Positions 5,284 to 20,492 of a stretch of 64,000 nt of DNA are shown here, piece by piece. The position numbers and the translations under genes are program-made. How positions within the stretch are numbered: the stretch's first letter is position 1; every line of letters begins with the position of its first letter. The notes beneath the pieces are model-generated. The model saw only the letters and a list, made by a program, of their open reading frames with translations, did no database searches and was not told the DNA's origin. The stretch spans positions 37,125-101,124 of the forward strand of contig DASXLI010000024.1 in the NCBI GenBank assembly GCA_036496285.1, given 5' to 3'. Origin of the DNA: Candidatus Binatia bacterium (lineage in GTDB: Bacteria; Desulfobacterota; Binatia; UTPRO1).

Positions 5284-5459
5284 TCATTCCCGTGACGCCG
5301 CGCCCCGGGATGCGCCGCTCGCGAGCCTCGCGCGCAGCTCCTCGAGCTCGCGGGTGGTGGCGCGGTGCTTGCGCCCAAGGCGGATCAGGAAGAGCGCGAG
5401 CAGCGTCCAGATCGCCGCGTAGGCGCTGAATAGGAACCAGAAGCGATCGGGGTTGCTCA
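5284..5459 (-). CDS. ccmD: Heme exporter protein CcmD
   Basis: A 58-aa single-TM protein (MSNPDRFWFLFSAYAAIWTLLALFLIRLGRKHR...). Its ATG overlaps the ccmC stop, and it is the last gene of the ccm operon. Confidence 0.6.
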
Positions 5460-6194
5460 TCGTGCGGCCCGAGCCGCGGATGCGTCGAGCGCCCCGATCT
5501 CGTCCTCCAGCGCGTGCAGCTCGTCGCGCAGCCGCAGGTCCTCGTAGCGCCGCCAGAGGAGCCACAGGAAGAGCAGCAGGAAGGCGACGAAGGCGACGAT
5601 CAACGTCGCGATCATGCGGCTGTCCTGGATGCCGGCGCCCGTCCCCGACGGCGCCGTGATGACCGACGGGTGCATGCCGCGCCACAAGCGCACCGACACC
5701 ATGATCAGCGGCACGTCCAGCACGCCGACGATCGCGAGCACCGCCGCGTAGCGCGCGATCTGCGGATCGTCCTGCGCCATCGCCCGCAGCACGAGGTACA
5801 CGGCGTAGATCGTCCAGAGGATCAGGGTCATCGTGAGCCGCGGGTCCCAGGTCCACCACGTGCCCCAGATGGGACGTGCCCAGATCGGGCCGCTCACCAG
5901 CACCATGGTGCAGAAGAGCATGCCCACCTCGACGGCGGCGTGCGCCAAGCGGTCGAACTCGGCACGGCCACGCCAGAGGAAGAGGCAGCTCGCCGCGGCG
6001 GCGACGCCGAAGCCCGCGAACGCCTCCCAGGCGGCGTTCACGTGAAAGTAGAAGATGCGCTGCACCGGCCCCTGCATGCGCTCGTTCGGCACCCAGAGGA
6101 AGACGCACGCGAGCGCAATGAACATCGCGACCGTCGCGGCGACGGGCAGGACGCCGTCGGCGAGCGGGGCGAGACGTCGGCGGATCATCATGAG
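5457..6194 (-). CDS. ccmC: Heme exporter protein CcmC (WWD domain)
   Basis: It has the WGTWWTWDPRLT tryptophan-rich WWD motif, conserved His residues and six TM helices. The start is MMIRRR at 6194. Confidence 0.85.
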   Translation of the reverse strand, partial: LMMIRRRLAPLADGVLPVAATVAMFIALACVFLWVPNERMQGPVQRIFYFHVNAAWEAFAGFGVAAAASCLFLWRGRAEFDRLAHAAVEVGMLFCTMVLVSGPIWARPIWGTWWTWDPRLTMTLILWTIYAVYLVLRAMAQDDPQIARYAAVLAIVGVLDVPLIMVSVRLWRGMHPSVITAPSGTGAGIQDSRMIATLIVAFVAFLLLFLWLLWRRYEDLRLRDELHALEDEIGALDASAARAAR

Positions 6195-6201
6195 TCGCTC
6201 C

Positions 6202-6864
6202 TCACTCGAGCACGAGCTGCTCGAACAGCATCCAGCCGGCCACGGTGACAATCACGTCGAACGTCGCCAGCACGCGGAGCCACACCCCCGCGCTCGCCGC
6301 CGGGCCGCCGGACAGGACGATGCGGCTTGCCTCGACGGCGCAGATGACGACCGGCACGAGGAGCGGCAACACGAGAAGCGGCAGCAGCAGCTCGCGCGCG
6401 CGCAAGCGCACTGAGATCGCGGCGAACAGCGTCGCGAGCGCCGAGAAGCCGATCAGCCCGAGCCCGTTCACGAGCAGGAGCTCGACCGGCGACGCGGCCA
6501 CCGGCACGCCGAGCACGAGCCCGAGCAGCAGGATAAGCACGACGTCGGCGATGGCGAGGACCACCAGGTTCGCGACGAGCTTGGCCGCGAAGATCGCGCC
6601 GCGGTCGACGGGCGCGAGCAGGAGCCCGTACCACGCGCCGCTCTCGCGCTCCACGAGGAACGTGCGCTGCACGCCGAGCAGGCCGGCGAAGATCAGCGTG
6701 ACCCACAGGACCGCGGGCGCGGCGCCGCGTGCGCCGTCGGGATCGAGCGCGAAGGTGAAGGTCAGCAGGATCAGGACGACCAGCATGACGAGGCTCGCGA
6801 GCGCCTCCCGCGTGCGCATCTCGAGCAGCAAGTCCTTGCGCAGGATGGGCCAGAGGGAGCGCAT
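6202..6864 (-). CDS. ccmB: Heme exporter permease CcmB
   Basis: A 220-aa polytopic membrane protein (MRSLWPILRKDLLLEMRTREALASL...) typical of CcmB. Its start lies 3 nt after the ccmA stop. Confidence 0.8.
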   Translation of the reverse strand: MRSLWPILRKDLLLEMRTREALASLVMLVVLILLTFTFALDPDGARGAAPAVLWVTLIFAGLLGVQRTFLVERESGAWYGLLLAPVDRGAIFAAKLVANLVVLAIADVVLILLLGLVLGVPVAASPVELLLVNGLGLIGFSALATLFAAISVRLRARELLLPLLVLPLLVPVVICAVEASRIVLSGGPAASAGVWLRVLATFDVIVTVAGWMLFEQLVLE

Positions 6865-6866
6865 GC

Positions 6867-7574
6867 CTAGGCCGCCACCGCGCCGGTGATGCGGCGGTAC
6901 GCCTCGTGGAACGCGCCGAGCTCGCCCGCCGTGCGAGTCGCCTGCCAGGCCACACGACCATCGTGCAGGATCATGGCCCGGTCGGCAATCGCGAGGCCGC
7001 GCTCGAAATCGTGGGTCGCGACGATCACCGTGCGGCCGTCCGCATGCGACGTGACGAGGAGGTCCGAAAGCAGATCGGCCGCCGCGGCGTCGAGCGCGCT
7101 CCACGGCTCGTCGAGCAGGAGGAGGTCGGGTGCGTGCAACAGCGCACGGGCGAGCGCCAGGCGCTGTTCCATGCCGCGCGAGAAGGCGCGCACCGGCCGC
7201 GTGCCCGTGCCGGCGAGGCCCACACGCGTGAGCCATTCCGCCGCGATCCGCTCGGGCTCGGGCAACGCATACAGTCGGGCGTAGAACGCGAGATTCTCAC
7301 TCGCGCTGAGATCCGGGTAGAGGAAGCTCTGGTGCGATACGACGCCGATGCGGCGCCGCGTGCTCGCCTCGCGCTCGAGCGAGCCGAAGAGGCGGAGCGA
7401 GCCGGCCGTCGGCGCGTAGATGGTCGCGCAGAGGCGCAGCAAGGTGCTCTTCCCCGCCCCATTCGGGCCGAAGAGGACGAGCGTCTCCCCGGCGTCGACC
7501 CGCAGCGTGACGTCGCGCAGCACACGCGTGCGGCCGAACGCCTTGCCGAGCGACTCGGCCTCGACGACGCTCAT
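6867..7574 (-). CDS. ccmA: Cytochrome c biogenesis ABC ATPase CcmA
   Basis: It has Walker A (GPNGAGKST), the signature FSRGMEQR, Walker B (LLLLDEP) and an H-loop (ATHD). Confidence 0.8.
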   Translation of the reverse strand: MSVVEAESLGKAFGRTRVLRDVTLRVDAGETLVLFGPNGAGKSTLLRLCATIYAPTAGSLRLFGSLEREASTRRRIGVVSHQSFLYPDLSASENLAFYARLYALPEPERIAAEWLTRVGLAGTGTRPVRAFSRGMEQRLALARALLHAPDLLLLDEPWSALDAAAADLLSDLLVTSHADGRTVIVATHDFERGLAIADRAMILHDGRVAWQATRTAGELGAFHEAYRRITGAVAA

Positions 7575-7668: not shown

Positions 7669-7947
7669 CTAGCGCCGGTCCAGCGCCGCGAGGGCGGCGA
7701 GCGCTCGATCCTCGTAGGTGCGGCGCAGGGTCGCATAGTCCTCGTCGGAGAGCTTGCCCATCTGCAGGTCGAACTCCGCCTCTTTGATCGCGGCGTAGGC
7801 GAGGTCGCGCTCCTTCTCGAGCCGGTAGCGCTCGGGGTCGCCGGACGGGGACGGCGGCACGATGGCGCCGCGCAGGAGCGGCGCGGCGACGGCCCACGCG
7901 ACCGAGGCGACGATCGCAAGCCCGGCGGCGTACCAGTACGACGTCAC
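7669..7947 (-). CDS. Small single-TM protein of unknown function inside the ccm operon, with a GTG start
   Basis: A GTG lies 1 nt after the ccmH stop. The product is VTSYWYAAGLAIVASVAWAVAAPLL (TM) followed by a charged helical tail (ERYRLEKERDLAYAAIKEAEFDLQMGKLSDEDYATLRRTYEDRA). It has no Cys and no TPR. The track ORF (7669..7989) starts at an ATG inside ccmH. Confidence 0.35.
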   Translation of the reverse strand: MTSYWYAAGLAIVASVAWAVAAPLLRGAIVPPSPSGDPERYRLEKERDLAYAAIKEAEFDLQMGKLSDEDYATLRRTYEDRALAALAALDRR

Positions 7948-7948
7948 G

Positions 7949-8347
7949 TCACGCGTCCCAGCGGTCGAGCTCGGCCTCGAGACGGGCACGGAGCTTCGGG
8001 TCGTCGGCGGCAGGCGCCGGGGGCTTGACCGTGTCCTGCTGCCGCCGCCAGCGCCGCGTCAGGATCACGATCAGCATCGTCGAGAGCAGGACCACGGCGA
8101 ACGGCGTCACCCAGGCGACGATGTTGAAGCCGCTCGTCGTCGGCGCCGAGAGGATCTTCTCGCCGTACTTGCCGGAGAAGTACGAGAGGACCTCCTCGCC
8201 CGTCTTCCCGAGCGCGAGCTGCGACGCGATCTCCTGCTTCAGTGGGATGCCGGAGGGGCACTGCAGATGGTTGCAGGCGTGCACCGTCAGGCCACAGCCG
8301 CACTGACACGTGAGCGCCTCCTCGAGATCGGTCTGCGACGCGTTCAC
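7949..8347 (-). CDS. ccmH: Cytochrome c-type biogenesis protein CcmH/CycL
   Basis: It has an LTCQCGCGLTVHACNHLQCP (LRCxxC-type) motif followed by a TM segment. The GTG start overlaps the ccmF TGA stop (GTGA). Confidence 0.75.
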   Translation of the reverse strand: MNASQTDLEEALTCQCGCGLTVHACNHLQCPSGIPLKQEIASQLALGKTGEEVLSYFSGKYGEKILSAPTTSGFNIVAWVTPFAVVLLSTMLIVILTRRWRRQQDTVKPPAPAADDPKLRARLEAELDRWDA

Positions 8348-10332
8348 GCGAACGCGCGTCCCTCGACGGCGAGCGCCGCGGCGAGCGCGCGCTGCTCCGC
8401 GGCGGTCGGCATCATGACGATCATCGTGCCGAGCACCATCGTGATGCCGCCGAGCCACAGCCAGACGACCAGCGGGTTGATGAACACCTGCAGCGTCATG
8501 AGCCCGGACTGGTCGTCGTAGCTGCCGAGCACGAGATAGAGGTCCTCCCACAGCGTCGTGCGCAGCGCGATCTCCGTCGTCGGCTGCTGCTGGCGCTTGT
8601 AGAAGCGCTTCTCCGGATACATCGTCGTGAGGACCTTGCCGCCGCGCGCGACCGTGATCTCTGCCAGCATCGACGCCGTATGCGGCGTGTCCTCGTTGCG
8701 GATGCCCTGGTACGTGAGGGTGTAGCCGCCGACCTCGACGGAATCGCCGGGGTGCATCGAGTGCTGCTCCTCGATGCGGAACGCCGCCGACGCCGCGATG
8801 CCGACGAACGCCATCACCACCCCGATGTGGACAATGTAGCCGCCGTACCGCCTGCGGTTCTTGTTGACGAGGTGCGCGAGCGCGGTGACGGGCGGCTCGC
8901 CCATCAGCGCCTGGCGCGCCCGGGTGCCGCGGTAGAACTCGAGCACGATCGTCGTGAGCACGAAGCCGGCGAGCGAGAAGCAGACGAGCGCGTAGTAGTG
9001 GCGCACGCCGGCGGCGAAGAGGCCGAGGCCTGCAGCGAAGCCGATCGCGAGCGGCATGATGAACGCGCGGCGCAGGTTGCGGGCGCTGGCGCGCCGCCAG
9101 GCGATCACCGGCCCGACCCCGGTCATGAAGAGCAGCGCAAGGCCGAGCGGGGCGTTCACCTTGTTGAAGAACGGCGGCCCGACCGTGATCTTGATGCCAC
9201 GCACCGCCTCCGAGATGACCGGGAAGATGGTGCCCCAGAAGGTGGCGAACGCGATGCCCACCAGCAGCAGGTTGTTGAAGAGGAACGCCGCCTCGCGCGA
9301 CAGGAACGAGTCGATCTCGTTGGCGCTGCGCAGGAGCGGCCGGCGGATGACCACGAGGGTGAGCGAGACTGCGATCACCGTGGTGAGGAAGCCGATGAAG
9401 TACGGCCCGAGCCCGGACTGCGTGAACGAGTGCACCGAGGAGACGACGCCGCTCCGGGTGAGGAAGGTGCCGAAGATGGTCAAGGTGAAGGTGAGCAGCA
9501 CCAGCACCATGTTCCACATCTTCAGCATGTTGCGTTTCTCCTGGATCATCACCGAGTGGAGGAACGCGGTGCACGCGAGCCACGGCATGAACGCAGCGTT
9601 CTCGACCGGATCCCACGCCCAGTAGCCGCCCCAGCCCAGCACCTCGTAGGCCCAGCGGCCGCCGAGCATGTTGCCGACGGAGAGGAAGAACCAGGCGAAG
9701 AGCGTCCAGCGCCGGGTCGTCCGGATCCACACGTCGCCGAGGCGGCCACTCGCGAGCGCGGCGATCGCGAACGCGAACGGCACCGAGCAGCCGACGTACC
9801 CGAGGTAGAGCGACGGCGGGTGGATCATCATCCAGTAGTTCTGCAGGAGCGGGTTGAGATCGGCCCCTTCGCGCGCCGGCACCGGCAGCCGCTGGAACGG
9901 GTCGGTGATGAAGACGAGGAGCCCGAGGAAGAACACCGCCGTCGTCATCATCGTGGCGGTGACGTACGGCATGAGCGCCTCGTTGCGGTCGCGGTTCTGC
10001 AGGTGCACCAGCGACGACATGCTGGTGAGGATCAGCGTCCAGAACAGCAGTGAGCCCTGCTGTCCGCCCCAGAGCGCCGCGACGGTGTAGTAGGTCGGCA
10101 GCGTCGACGACGAGTACGCGGCGACGTACTCGAGCGAGAAATCGTGCTGCAGGAGCGCGCGCAGCAGCACCGCGGCGGCGAGCACGACGAGGCCGTGCAC
10201 GATGTACGCCGCGGCACGCCCCGAGGCGACCAGGTCGGCACGCCGGCGGCGCGCGCCGAACACGGAGACCACCGTCGCATACACCGCAGCGAAGAGGGCC
10301 AGCCGCAGCCCGAGAACGCCGAGCTCGATCAT
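8344..10332 (-). CDS. ccmF: Cytochrome c-type biogenesis heme lyase CcmF
   Basis: A 662-aa polytopic protein with the WWD motif (WGGYWAWDPVEN) and the conserved His residues of the CcmF/NrfE family. Confidence 0.9.
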   Translation of the reverse strand: MIELGVLGLRLALFAAVYATVVSVFGARRRRADLVASGRAAAYIVHGLVVLAAAVLLRALLQHDFSLEYVAAYSSSTLPTYYTVAALWGGQQGSLLFWTLILTSMSSLVHLQNRDRNEALMPYVTATMMTTAVFFLGLLVFITDPFQRLPVPAREGADLNPLLQNYWMMIHPPSLYLGYVGCSVPFAFAIAALASGRLGDVWIRTTRRWTLFAWFFLSVGNMLGGRWAYEVLGWGGYWAWDPVENAAFMPWLACTAFLHSVMIQEKRNMLKMWNMVLVLLTFTLTIFGTFLTRSGVVSSVHSFTQSGLGPYFIGFLTTVIAVSLTLVVIRRPLLRSANEIDSFLSREAAFLFNNLLLVGIAFATFWGTIFPVISEAVRGIKITVGPPFFNKVNAPLGLALLFMTGVGPVIAWRRASARNLRRAFIMPLAIGFAAGLGLFAAGVRHYYALVCFSLAGFVLTTIVLEFYRGTRARQALMGEPPVTALAHLVNKNRRRYGGYIVHIGVVMAFVGIAASAAFRIEEQHSMHPGDSVEVGGYTLTYQGIRNEDTPHTASMLAEITVARGGKVLTTMYPEKRFYKRQQQPTTEIALRTTLWEDLYLVLGSYDDQSGLMTLQVFINPLVVWLWLGGITMVLGTMIVMMPTAAEQRALAAALAVEGRAFA

Positions 10333-10360: not shown

Positions 10361-10801
10361 TCACGACTTCGGTGCCTCGGCTGGACGCGGGGCCTCCGCC
10401 TCGTGCGGCACCTCGGCCTCGTACTTCGACGGGCAGCTGGTCATGAGGGTCTTCGCGTGGAACACGCCCTCGCGGGCGTATGTGCCCTCGACGATGACGT
10501 CGCGGCCCTCGGCGAACATGTCGGGCAGGACGCCGTTGTACTGCACGTCGACACCGTCGGTGTTGTCGAAGTTGGCGAGACGAAAGCCGAGATCGAGCGT
10601 GCCGGCATTCCACCGCATGCTGTCGGCGGCGACGCGTCCCGCGACCCGCACGCCCTCGCCGGCGACGGCCGAGCGCTTCGACAGGAACTCGTCGATCGTG
10701 AGGTAGTAGACCGACGTCTCGCGGATGCCGGTGTAGACGAGGTAGGAGACGGCCGCCACGATGATGGCGGCGCCAATGATGAAGCGGCGGTTCTTGCGCA
10801 T
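10361..10801 (-). CDS. ccmE: Heme chaperone CcmE, variant with a CxxxY heme-binding motif
   Basis: It has an N-terminal TM anchor and an OB-fold body. Its C-terminal ...FHAKTLMTSCPSKYEAEV aligns with E. coli ...LAKHDENYTPPEV, with Cys replacing the heme-binding His. Confidence 0.85.
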   Translation of the reverse strand: MRKNRRFIIGAAIIVAAVSYLVYTGIRETSVYYLTIDEFLSKRSAVAGEGVRVAGRVAADSMRWNAGTLDLGFRLANFDNTDGVDVQYNGVLPDMFAEGRDVIVEGTYAREGVFHAKTLMTSCPSKYEAEVPHEAEAPRPAEAPKS

Positions 10802-10821: not shown

Positions 10822-11652
10822 TCAGGACTCGTCCGGGGACCCGTCCCCACTAGTACTCGCGCCCGGACGGCCTTTCAACTCGCCGCGCGGCGCGACGCAC
10901 ACTCCGCGGGTGGAGGCGCGGACGAACGCCACGAGATGACGCACATCGTCGGTCAGGGGCGCGCTCTCGAGCTGGTCGAGCGCCCGACCGAGATGCACCG
11001 GGCGGCCGAAGAGGGCCGCCACGGCCCGGCGGACATGGGTGATGCGCTCGGAGCTGAATCCGGCGCGCCGCAGCCCGACGACGTTCACCCCGCGCACCGT
11101 ATGCGTCCCGTCGATCACGCAGAACGGCGGGATGTCGCGGCTCGTGCGCGAAAGCCCACGCATGAGCGCAAGCGTGCCGATGCGCACATGCTGATGCACG
11201 ACGCAGTTGCCCGAGACGAACGCACGGTCGGCGAGCTCCACGTGCCCCGCGAGGAGCGCCCCGCCTGCGACGATGGCCTGATTGCCGATGTGGCAGTTGT
11301 GGGCGACGTGCGCGTTCTGCATGAAATAGTTGCCGTTCCCGATGATCGTGGTGCTGCCGGGCAGCGTGCCGCGATGCACCTGCGCGTGCTCGCGGAAGAC
11401 GTTGTCGTCGCCGATCGTGAGGAACGTCTCGCCGCCGCGGAACGCGAGGTCCTGCGGCTCGCCGCCGAGCACGACGCCGGGATGGACGACGTTGCCCGCA
11501 CCCAGGACGGTCGCGCCGCGGATCACGGCGTGCGTCATGAGTCGGGTGCCCGGGCCGATCCGCGCCGGCCCCTCGATCACGACGTAGGGGCCGATCTCCG
11601 CGGTCGGATCGACGACCGCGTCGGGGGCGACGATCGCGGTCGGATGGATCAT
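10822..11652 (-). CDS. lpxA: UDP-N-acetylglucosamine O-acyltransferase LpxA (left-handed beta-helix)
   Basis: It begins [38 protein letters not shown] and carries hexapeptide repeats. It is about 276 aa. The upstream part of the track ORF is junk. Confidence 0.85.
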
Positions 11653-17633: not shown

Positions 17634-20492
17634 TCACGAGCAACTGAGGCGCTGGGCGCTCCCCCGACAGCGCGGCCGCGCCGCGCTCGACGCGCCCCAG
17701 TGGGCCGTGGCGCACTCGTCCACCGCGCCGAAGCGGATCGCCAGATCGACCGGTCCCGCGACCGGAAGCAGCGGGGCGCCGGCGAAGCGCAGATCGAACG
17801 TCAGCCGTCCGGCAACCTGCGACGACTGATCGACGATCGTGAGCCGTCGCAACCCGCCGAGCGCGGCGCTCGGGTCGTCGAAGCGCCAGCGTTTGCCCGA
17901 GACGTTCGTCGTCCACCCGGCGCCGCCCGGCACCGTGACGTCGAGGACCCCGTCGATGACGATGCGGATGCCGTTGCCCGGCGGATCGACGCCGATCCAG
18001 GGCCGCGGGATGAGCGCCCGCCCGACGACATGCATGCTGCCGCCCGCACCGACCCGTAGGCGCGCGCGCTCGATCGAGAAGCCGCTCGCGCACGTACCGC
18101 CGTCGCCCGGCGTGGCGCTCGCGCTCGGCACGGGCGCGGTCGGCGTGGCACCGCCGGCTGGCGAGGTGGGCGTGGCCGTCCGCGTGGCCGCCGGGGTCGG
18201 CGTTCGCGTCGCCATGGGCGTGACGGTGCGCGTGGCGACCGGCGTCGGGGTCTTCGTCGCGACCGGGGTGGCGGTGCGTGTCGCGACGGGGGTCGCGGTG
18301 CGGGTCGCACCGGCCCCGGGCGTCGCCGTCGGAGCGCCGCTCTGCTGCTGCTTCCACTGCGCCAGGAGGCCGTGCAGCGCCTCCGGCTCGTTGGTCGGCG
18401 GCGGGGCACCGGTCTGGCTGAGCGTGTTGATGCCGTGGCAGCTCGCGCAGACGCGGATCTCCCCCGCCTGCATGCTGAGCCAATTGCGCTCGCGGACGAC
18501 CGGCCCGCCCGCGGCGTCGGTGAGCTGCCACGACAGCGCGCGGCGCGCCGGCACGAGCGCCGCGAACGAGCCGTCCGACGCGATCGTCACCGCACCGAGG
18601 GGGCCGCCTGCCGCATGCGAGACGTTCGGCTCGTGCATCGGCCGCGCGAGCAGGCGGCGGCCGGGCTGCGGGCTCACCGGGTTGCCGTAGCCGCGTACGG
18701 CGTCGCCCTGGAAGATCTGCAGATACGAGACGTCATAGGCGGTGCCGCCCGTCGCGATCGACGCGACCCCCCCCGGCACACGCAGATTGAAGGGCTGCGA
18801 GCGATCGGCACGGTCGCGCTGCGTGACGTTGCGGCTCACGATCAGCGCGAGGCCGTTGTTGCGGAGATAGTCCTGGAACGCCGCGACGTCGACGGCCTCC
18901 TGCGCGAAGACTGACGCCTCGATCGACGGCAGGGACTCCTGGCGCGGCGCCGGCACGGAACGGGCGACGACCTCGACCGGGTCGAGCTCCCAGAGCATGC
19001 CGTTGTACGAGGCGAGCGTGTCGGGCGTCCACCAGCTGACGCTCTTCTGGATGCCGGCCGTGAGGCTCGCGAGCGGCGCGTAGAAGGCACCCTGCTTGCT
19101 GAGGATCTTCAGGCGGTACTGATACGACCAGTTCGGCGCGGCGGTGCTGCCGACGTTCTGCAGCTGCCCGGTCGCTGTCGTGTGCGCGGCCAGCAGGGTG
19201 CCGTCCGTCATCGGCAGCGGGTTGCGGAAGTAGCCGGTCTGCTGCGGCACCTGCGCGTCGTTGCCGGTCGGCGTGACCGCGGTGAGCGTCATGTCCTCGG
19301 CGTTGATCGACGGCGCGCCCGTGAGGCGCATCAAGGTGCCGCCGGCGCCGGTGCCGAACTCGGGCGCGTCGGTCGCGAGGAAGTCGCCCGGCACCCGCGG
19401 GTCCTCCCGCAGCTGCAGGAGGCCGCCGTCGCCGCGGATGTCGAGCTGGTTCGCGTGCAGGCTCGGGTCGACGTAGTAGGTCAGGTTCGGGTCGGCGACG
19501 AAGCTGCCGTCGGTGTAGGAGCCGCCGAGCTCGTGCCGCCCGACGTGGTTCAGGGTCTCCTCGGCGGTACCGTCCTCGTTCAGCTCCCACGGGAAGAAGT
19601 GATTGAAGGTATGCAGCGAGACCGCGGGCGAGTACGCGGGATCCCCCTGCGAGCGCGGCTCGGGAAAGATCTCGGCGCCGGCGAGCGTCGTCGTCGTCGC
19701 GGCGTTGGCCGCCTCGCTCGCCCACGTGAAGGACTGGTAGTTGGCGACGACATCCGGCGCGTCGCCCTGCTGGTCGCGCTGCAGATGGTCCCACTTGGTG
19801 AAGACGACGCGGCCGAAGGAGTCGATCGACGGCGTGAAGCTGCCACTCGGCGAGTGCTCGAGCAGCTCGAGGTCGCCCGTCGCCTCGTCGAGCGCGTAGA
19901 TCCCGGCGACCGTGTAGGCGGACTCGTACTCGTCGCGCTGCGGGTAGAGCTGCGGAGCGCCGCTCGGCGGCCGGTCGGACGTGAAGAGGATGCGCCCGTC
20001 GGTCGCGTAGATCGGCGAGACGTTGTTGAAGCTCGCCGGCTGGTTGGCGATCCGACGGATCGTCGCAGTCGCGCCCTGCGCGAGGCCGGTCACCTCGTAG
20101 ATCTGCCAGTGGTACGTGGCAACCTGGTACTGCTGCGTCGGAGCGCCTACGACCATCGCGAAGAGCGCCTTCGTGCCGCTCCAGTGCACGCACGGCTCGC
20201 GCACCGCGATCGCGTTCGCGCCCTGCATGCCGGCGTTGCCGAATCCCCCCTCCTGCGTGAGGAAGCGGAGCGACCCGTCGGGATAGCGAATCACGAGATC
20301 GCCACCGCGCGGCGCGGACTCCATCGTCGCGAGGTGATTGCCGAACGTGCTCGTCAGCGCACCGAACCCGCCGACCGGCATCTGGGTGACGAAGAGTACA
20401 GGGTTGGACGGCGCGACCTGCGCCGGTGCCGTGCACGGGTGCGCGACCACCACGGCTGCCACAAAGCATAGTACCAGGGTCCGGCGTCGCAT
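17634..20492 (-). CDS. Large secreted protein (~953 aa): beta-propeller-like N-terminal region, a single CxxCH heme c motif, a Thr/Pro/Ala linker and a C-terminal beta-rich domain
   Basis: The true start MRRRTLVLCFVAAVVVAHPCTAPAQVA at 20492 (GAGGAG RBS) is followed by a signal peptide. RVCASCHGIN is at about residue 770. The linker is ...TATPVATRTATPVATKTPTPVATRTVTPMATRTPTPAATRT... The track ORF is over-extended at its 5' end. Confidence 0.7.
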   Translation of the reverse strand: MRRRTLVLCFVAAVVVAHPCTAPAQVAPSNPVLFVTQMPVGGFGALTSTFGNHLATMESAPRGGDLVIRYPDGSLRFLTQEGGFGNAGMQGANAIAVREPCVHWSGTKALFAMVVGAPTQQYQVATYHWQIYEVTGLAQGATATIRRIANQPASFNNVSPIYATDGRILFTSDRPPSGAPQLYPQRDEYESAYTVAGIYALDEATGDLELLEHSPSGSFTPSIDSFGRVVFTKWDHLQRDQQGDAPDVVANYQSFTWASEAANAATTTTLAGAEIFPEPRSQGDPAYSPAVSLHTFNHFFPWELNEDGTAEETLNHVGRHELGGSYTDGSFVADPNLTYYVDPSLHANQLDIRGDGGLLQLREDPRVPGDFLATDAPEFGTGAGGTLMRLTGAPSINAEDMTLTAVTPTGNDAQVPQQTGYFRNPLPMTDGTLLAAHTTATGQLQNVGSTAAPNWSYQYRLKILSKQGAFYAPLASLTAGIQKSVSWWTPDTLASYNGMLWELDPVEVVARSVPAPRQESLPSIEASVFAQEAVDVAAFQDYLRNNGLALIVSRNVTQRDRADRSQPFNLRVPGGVASIATGGTAYDVSYLQIFQGDAVRGYGNPVSPQPGRRLLARPMHEPNVSHAAGGPLGAVTIASDGSFAALVPARRALSWQLTDAAGGPVVRERNWLSMQAGEIRVCASCHGINTLSQTGAPPPTNEPEALHGLLAQWKQQQSGAPTATPGAGATRTATPVATRTATPVATKTPTPVATRTVTPMATRTPTPAATRTATPTSPAGGATPTAPVPSASATPGDGGTCASGFSIERARLRVGAGGSMHVVGRALIPRPWIGVDPPGNGIRIVIDGVLDVTVPGGAGWTTNVSGKRWRFDDPSAALGGLRRLTIVDQSSQVAGRLTFDLRFAGAPLLPVAGPVDLAIRFGAVDECATAHWGASSAARPRCRGSAQRLSCS
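18130..18340. repeat. Short tandem-repetitive DNA encoding the TATPVATR linker of the upstream large protein
   Basis: There are repeated gtcgcgac/ggggtcg/gcggtgcg units. On the opposite strand they appear as GVAVRVATGV repeats. Confidence 0.6.

Follow-up and report, generated by a model that had tools for sequence, protein, structure and literature searches.

The window, a stretch of 64,000 nucleotides (64 kb) from a Candidatus Binatia bacterium, contains a compact minus-strand operon for cytochrome c maturation in the order ccmE-ccmF-ccmH'-small ORF-ccmA-ccmB-ccmC-ccmD. The first gene, ccmE, occupies an open reading frame with the exact coordinates 10361..10801 (minus strand, ATG start, 146 aa). 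Its product is assigned as a Cys-type (System I*) haem chaperone, and the translation ends in ...FHAKTLMTSCPSKYEAEVPHEAEAPRPAEAPKS, also given as ...VFHAKTLMTSCPSKYEAEVPHEAEAPRPAEAPKS, identical to the C-terminal end quoted in a preliminary description of this DNA. The Pfam family CcmE (PF03100) matched the product at 90.7 bits (cut-off 24.6, E 8.5e-26) over profile positions 2-98 of 99, and a phmmer search of all PDB sequences returned only CcmE proteins, led by 2KCT, the CcmE domain of D. vulgaris (E 4.7e-12), and followed by the E. coli entries 8ce8_E and 1sr3_A and then Shewanella 1j6q. An AlphaFold model built with 140 homologues as input (mean pLDDT 78.5) comprised a helix at residues 3-29, a beta-barrel at residues 32-121 and then a disordered tail, with pLDDT <50 from residue 130. 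The helix (10715..10795, minus strand; pLDDT up to 95) contains the hydrophobic segment FIIGAAIIVAAVSYLVYTG preceded by MRKNRR and is assigned as the N-terminal membrane anchor, while the DSSP strands of the barrel (10439..10708, minus strand) form the predicted periplasmic OB-fold domain, for which Foldseek ranked five CcmE structures highest in the PDB (8ce8_E, 1lm0, 1sr3, 1j6q and 2kct). The anchor, OB-fold barrel and flexible C-terminal tail characteristic of the family were all present in the model, and the preliminary identification of the protein as CcmE was borne out by both the Pfam match and the fold.

The haem-binding motif of this CcmE reads CPSKY (10421..10435, minus strand), with Cys123 encoded by TGC at 10433-10435 and Tyr127 by TAC at 10421-10423. 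In the phmmer alignments the window segment KTLMTSCPSKY was paired with KEVLAKHDENY of E. coli CcmE (8ce8_E, 1sr3_A), so that Cys123 stands opposite E. coli His130 and Tyr127 opposite Tyr134, and the same placement was obtained independently with MAFFT from an alignment of the window CcmE, E. coli, Shewanella, D. vulgaris and four genomic relatives. The proposal in the preliminary description that a Cys occupies the haem-binding His130 column, together with its suggestion that this be checked by alignment to CcmE family members, was confirmed by these two alignments: the His of the canonical System I HxxxY motif is absent, and the two features of a System I* chaperone are both found, Cys standing where E. 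coli has His130 and Tyr following four residues later. The possibility, also raised there, that a nearby His aligns in place of the Cys was ruled out because H115 and H134 are not conserved, varying even among the Binatia relatives. Cys123 is located two residues past the last beta-strand of the AlphaFold model, and no second CcmE-like motif was found in the 64-kb window.

Conservation at this site is strong. C123 is one of only five invariant columns in an alignment of 140 sequences with identity down to about 30%, P124, K126 and Y127 are conserved at 90% or above in the same alignment, and CPSKY is present in all of the closest database homologues listed (120 of 120). A sequencing error at Cys123, or a ccmE gene that is decaying and non-functional, would be another explanation for the substitution, but the TGC codon is two substitutions away from any His codon, the Cys is unchanged across independent assemblies, and the open reading frame is intact, has a GC3 of 0.92 similar to that of its neighbours, and lies inside a complete operon with overlapping start and stop codons. 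As the Cys is conserved in more than 250 independent sequences, error or decay is considered to be refuted, with a negligible chance of being correct.

The remaining genes of the operon encode the expected partners of a CcmE. The ccmF gene (8344..10332, minus strand) encodes a 662 aa haem lyase with a WWD motif and four conserved His (Pfam Cytochrom_C_asm and CcmF_C), which matched T. thermophilus CcmF (6zmq) at 421 bits with GGYWAWDPVENA, IHPP, FLHS, SVHSF and IVHIG aligned. The ABC ATPase gene ccmA (6867..7574, minus strand) was identified by Pfam ABC_tran and by NCBIfam TIGR01189 (131.8 bits against a cut-off of 131.6), and the ABC membrane subunit gene ccmB (6202..6864, minus strand) by Pfam CcmB PF03379 (107.9 bits). 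The product of ccmC (5457..6191, minus strand; Pfam Cytochrom_C_asm), the haem-handling WWD protein that loads CcmE, matched E. coli CcmC (7f02_C) at 79 bits with FHV (His60), WGTWWTWDPRLT (WWD) and GMHPS (His184) aligned. The ccmD gene (5284..5460, minus strand; 58 aa) matched NCBIfam TIGR04391 CcmD_alt_fam at 37.6 bits (cut-off 24), and its ATG overlaps the ccmC stop codon (ATGA). Association of a CcmE with ccmC, ccmABD and ccmF is thus found within one minus-strand operon, the order of which is kept in related loci. The haem-handling machinery is intact, with CcmC and CcmF retaining all known haem-handling residues. Matches to the NCBIfam models for NrfE and NrfF, below their cut-offs, prompted consideration of a dedicated Nrf lyase (an NrfEFG-like operon), but ccmE and ccmABCD are both part of the operon, and this reading was rejected on that ground. 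No gene for CcmG or CcdA was found in the 64-kb window, nor was there a WCxxC thioredoxin in a real ORF.

Several neighbouring genes were also recorded. Upstream of ccmE, across a gap of 20 nt, lies a gene for an LpxA-like hexapeptide acyltransferase (10822-11640, minus strand), an adjacency that is kept in most Binatia loci (L001-L012 and L014) and in L021, with no functional link evident, and a GAF histidine kinase gene lies downstream of the operon. About 7 kb from ccmE, positions 17634-20489 (minus strand) encode a large secreted protein with a PD40 beta-propeller repeat, a middle HZS_alpha (hydrazine-synthase-alpha) domain containing CASCH, and a C-terminal half of Thr/Pro-rich repeats (TATPVATRTATPVATKTPTPVATRT...). 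The CASCH protein probably serves the Ccm operon as a c-type haem substrate, and its repeats may be the 'Myxococcus-type repeat proteins' referred to in the preliminary description.

Between ccmF and ccmA there are two further genes. The first, ccmH' (7949..8347, minus strand), encodes a 132 aa protein of the CcmH family, and its GTG start overlaps the TGA stop of ccmF (GTGA). Membership of the family is indicated by both the Pfam match (CcmH, PF03918; 59.5 bits against a cut-off of 25) and the fold, as the sole Foldseek match of the predicted model in the PDB was P. aeruginosa CcmH 2hl7 (probability 0.97, TM-score 0.55 normalised by target length), and the model has a transmembrane helix at residues 73-104. 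The LRCxxC redox motif of the family is absent and is replaced by LTCQCGCGLTVHACNHLQC, which has CxC and CxxxC spacings and no CxxC. The surrounding block, LTCQCGCGLTVHACNHLQCPS, contains five Cys and two His, the Binatia form being CxCxC-x6-C-x4-C, and is identical in the 120 homologues listed except at two variable positions (H-x-C, H-x-Q); among the Binatia loci the five-Cys block is essentially unchanged at an overall identity of about 50%. Related five-Cys CcmH proteins are encoded beside Cys-type ccmE genes in at least three unrelated uncultured lineages (L021 LTCQCGCGLTVHRCNHVNC, L023 ILCDCGCHPQAVHACAC and L025 LRCDCGCHPQSVKDCAC). A CcmH-family gene was present beside ccmF in four of the 11 non-Binatia contexts examined, which is in line with the published figure of about one third (PMC3601427). 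In the clade of the window, about 10 residues of CcmH' precede the Cys motif (8335-8360, minus strand) and there is no signal peptide; a hydrophobic segment resembling a signal is found at the N-terminus of the deeper Binatia copies (L010, L012-L014). As a guess, the N-terminal domain of CcmH' might be delivered to the periplasm by N-tail insertion driven by the downstream transmembrane helix and an RRWRR segment.

The second gene is a small ORF (7669..7989, minus strand) of up to 106 aa, the start of which is uncertain, with one transmembrane helix and a coiled-coil segment carrying the motif EFDLQMGKLSDEDY, in the general form (D/E)(F/Y)D.x.GK(L/I)..(E/D)(D/E)Y. The product had no Pfam or NCBIfam family match. 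It appears as a conserved partner gene: syntenic copies are present in the Binatia loci, the motif is found after ccmF/ccmH in L021 and in Kyrpidia tusciae (L018 10872-11297) and, less strictly matched, in L023 and L025, and it occurs directly after ccmF in Fischerbacteria (L019 10417-10686). The small ORF looks like an unnamed Ccm accessory protein. A limited literature search found no description of either the five-Cys CcmH or the small partner, and these partner proteins are the less-charted part of the operon, the CcmE itself being a known variant. Stevens et al. 2011 looked for compensatory features in System I* and found none (PMC3601427). It is conceivable, if rather unlikely, that CcmH' and the small protein are such features, for example by providing a metal-binding or multi-thiol site that would help to break the CcmE-haem thioether or to reduce the apocytochrome without CcmG.

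Binatia (Binatota) is a group that was long filed under Deltaproteobacteria. NCBI places Binatia within Candidatus Binatota, and the search for genomic loci encoding relatives of the window CcmE yielded 16. The fourteen closest, with 50-90% identity, belong to MAGs that bear the names Candidatus Binatia, 'uncultured delta proteobacterium', 'Deltaproteobacteria bacterium' or 'Polyangiaceae bacterium'. The arrangement ccmE-ccmF-ccmH'-small ORF is kept in all Binatia loci long enough to show gene order, and remains an intact block even where ccmABCD has been moved or inverted (L010, L012 and L014); this arrangement is old within the class Binatia. The preliminary description had given the genome a G+C content of ~70%, which agrees with the 69.3% of the window, and had seen in it repeat proteins of Myxococcus type; the genome is not a Myxococcus relative, the closest genomic loci being Candidatus Binatia MAGs. 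The paper describing Binatota reports that SILVA and RDP put the group in Myxococcota, Desulfobacterota or unclassified Deltaproteobacteria (PMC8262859), and these placements probably account for the Myxococcus-type impression.

To the same description the CxxxY motif was unusual and marked the lineage, a reading that would fit, for example, its recent acquisition by a Myxococcus-like genome from archaea or sulfate reducers. The motif is certainly fixed in the Binatia clade, since CPSKY is present in every one of the 14 related Binatia loci and of the 120 nearest homologues listed. However, the operon is syntenic across Binatia and has diverged in step with the remainder of the locus (CcmE identity 50-90%), which argues for old vertical inheritance and against recent import. 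Neither is the motif restricted to this lineage. In a full HMMER scan of 1.84 billion cluster representatives, CcmE-family clusters numbered 3373 at E <= 1e-3, and 970 of them reached E <= 1e-10. Among the best 150 of these 3373 clusters (50%-identity representatives, with 33-84% identity to the query), the His130 column held Cys in 143 and His in one, and CPSKY was the majority motif among the Cys-type CcmEs surveyed. Named carriers of the Cys type included Kyrpidia tusciae and Alicyclobacillaceae in the Bacillota, as well as Chloroflexi/Chloroflexota, Dehalococcoidia (with CPSKF), Candidatus Fischerbacteria, Planctomycetota and Desulfovibrionales; few of the names of distant carriers came from cluster look-ups and more from the profile search. 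The literature, moreover, already names delta-proteobacteria, Chloroflexi and Firmicutes (PMC3601427). Cys-type CcmE is a common variant spread across phyla, fixed in Binatia, and a trait shared by so many phyla cannot mark Binatia; a lineage-defining or recently imported CxxxY is accordingly regarded as highly improbable. The preliminary description had identified the variant correctly, including that it had been described before, with published cases in archaea and Desulfovibrio, and had overstated its rarity and diagnostic value.

Several divergent family members were also noted. In a Dehalococcoidia MAG (L016 8001-8369, plus strand) the CcmE ends in VKCPSKF, with Phe replacing the Tyr ligand, and the gene order is ccmA-B-C-ccmE with no adjoining ccmF. 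A set of CcmE-domain proteins of about 221-225 aa (P0510, P0491, P0492, P0502, P0504 and similar) is represented, for example, in Gordonibacter sp. An230 (Actinomycetota). One of these, P0510, stops right after the OB domain and lacks any C/HxxxY tail, so that its haem-binding residue, if there is one, must lie elsewhere. A protein of 428 aa, P0378, consists of a PHP-like phosphoesterase domain (about 290 aa) followed by a Cys-type CcmE (AKCPSKYE), an arrangement that may be either a gene-calling artefact or a real fusion.

The CcmE with Cys in place of His was reportedly found by Allen et al. 2006, who are said to have named the system System I* and to have defined it at first by the novel CcmE together with the lack of CcmH. 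The second part of this definition does not apply to the window, where a PF03918 gene follows ccmF, and it was given up by Stevens et al. 2011, since CcmH is found in about one third of the bacteria with System I* (PMC3601427). By then many more Cys-type CcmEs had become available, most of them from delta-proteobacteria and others from Chloroflexi and Firmicutes; CPSKY predominated, in 25 of 36 genomes, and the Tyr was replaced by Phe in four (PMC3601427).

The window operon was compared with four named systems. The window CcmE shares with Desulfovibrio CcmE* the OB fold and membrane anchor, the Cys in the His130 column and the Tyr four residues on, and the position of ccmE as first gene of the operon, followed by ccmF and ccmABC(D); the CcmE of a Desulfovibrionaceae locus (L015) reads TKCPSKY. 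Identity to D. vulgaris 2KCT is 45% over the structurally aligned core, and overall CcmE identity is only about 39%. The Desulfovibrionaceae locus differs in having neither a CcmH-family gene nor a small ORF between ccmF and ccmA, both of which are present in the window. In Kyrpidia tusciae DSM 2912, a cultured member of the Bacillota (CP002017), the operon has a similar order, with ccmE (VKCPSKYE), ccmF, a CcmH-family gene and a small transmembrane protein with EYDYQMGKLTYEEY, followed further on by ccmA-B-C-D. However, Kyrpidia CcmH has only two Cys (C-x8-C, aligning to C16 and C25 of the window protein) against five in the window protein, there are additionally a 298-aa gene and, adjacent, one for a thioredoxin-like protein, and CcmE identity is 37%. 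M. acetivorans has a Cys-type haem-binding motif (CxxxY, C120), but its system consists of CcmABCEF only, encoded by dispersed genes and lacking CcmD, CcmH and CcmI, whereas the single operon of the window includes both ccmD and a gene of the CcmH family. The canonical HxxxY proteins of E. coli and Shewanella (1SR3, 1J6Q, 8CE8) have the same fold, anchor, Tyr position and partners (CcmC, CcmABD and CcmF), and differ in having His130 where the window has Cys, at an identity of about 28%.

Overall, this Binatia bacterium very probably has a complete cytochrome c maturation operon of the Cys type (System I*), with the open reading frame encoding its haem chaperone CcmE. The family, fold, residue positions, conservation, operon context and taxonomic placement were computed here, and the covalent attachment of haem to the Cys and the direction in which haem moves are inferred by analogy from the literature. 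Under this model, CcmE would be anchored N-in in the inner membrane by its single N-terminal helix, with the OB domain facing the periplasm, and would be loaded by CcmC, which would present haem by means of its WWD motif and two His ligands. A thioether would then form between Cys123 and a vinyl group of the haem, where canonical CcmE forms a His-vinyl bond, and Tyr127 would ligate the iron. CcmAB(D) would spend ATP to release holo-CcmE, from which CcmF and the CcmH-family protein would take the haem and attach it to CXXCH apocytochromes.

The main alternative to this chemistry is that Cys123 serves only as a non-covalent thiolate ligand to the haem iron, CcmE being a reversible carrier that forms no thioether. 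This would be consistent with the soluble CcmE domain of D. vulgaris (2KCT, the best PDB match), an OB fold that, in the account of Aramini 2012 contained in PMC3884852, binds ferric haem non-covalently in vitro through C127, and with the argument of Stevens et al. that a thioether is hard to break again (PMC3601427). However, the D. vulgaris result was obtained in vitro with a truncated domain lacking CcmC, while full-length D. desulfuricans CcmE*, accompanied by its own Ccm proteins, binds haem covalently via the Cys, and the D. desulfuricans ccm operon yields holocytochrome c in E. coli, according to the relevant passages of PMC3601427 and PMC3884852. In M. acetivorans, C120 is needed both for haem attachment and for CcmE stability: the haem-stained CcmE band depends on C120, and in the C120A and C120H mutants either haem attachment or the protein itself is lost (PMC9084895). 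His and Cys are not interchangeable in either system (PMC3601427; PMC9084895). A purely non-covalent role for Cys123 is therefore considered improbable and covalent attachment is preferred for the window protein, with the qualification that, given the non-covalent binding in D. vulgaris, covalent attachment is not certain for every member.

The window CcmE is a new Binatia member of a kind that has been known for about 20 years, and adds little beyond the indication that uncultured Binatota probably mature c-type cytochromes with a Cys-type System I*, which fits the known picture for the former Deltaproteobacteria. The biochemical question of how the normally stable CcmE-Cys-haem thioether is broken again applies to the variant as a whole and is not specific to this gene; the only lead from the window is the pair of CcmH' and the small ORF, as the five-Cys CcmH and its small partner could offer a handle on thioether cleavage if studied in a tractable carrier. 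The main use of the result is in annotation, this being a clear CcmE member that falls under all NCBIfam CcmE equivalog cut-offs. All eight of the NCBIfam equivalog models for CcmE score the window protein far under their cut-offs (best 78.9 bits against 126), and the Cys-type CcmEs of its clade may for this reason escape naming by model-based annotation; one NCBI relative of the window CcmE carries the label 'hypothetical protein'.
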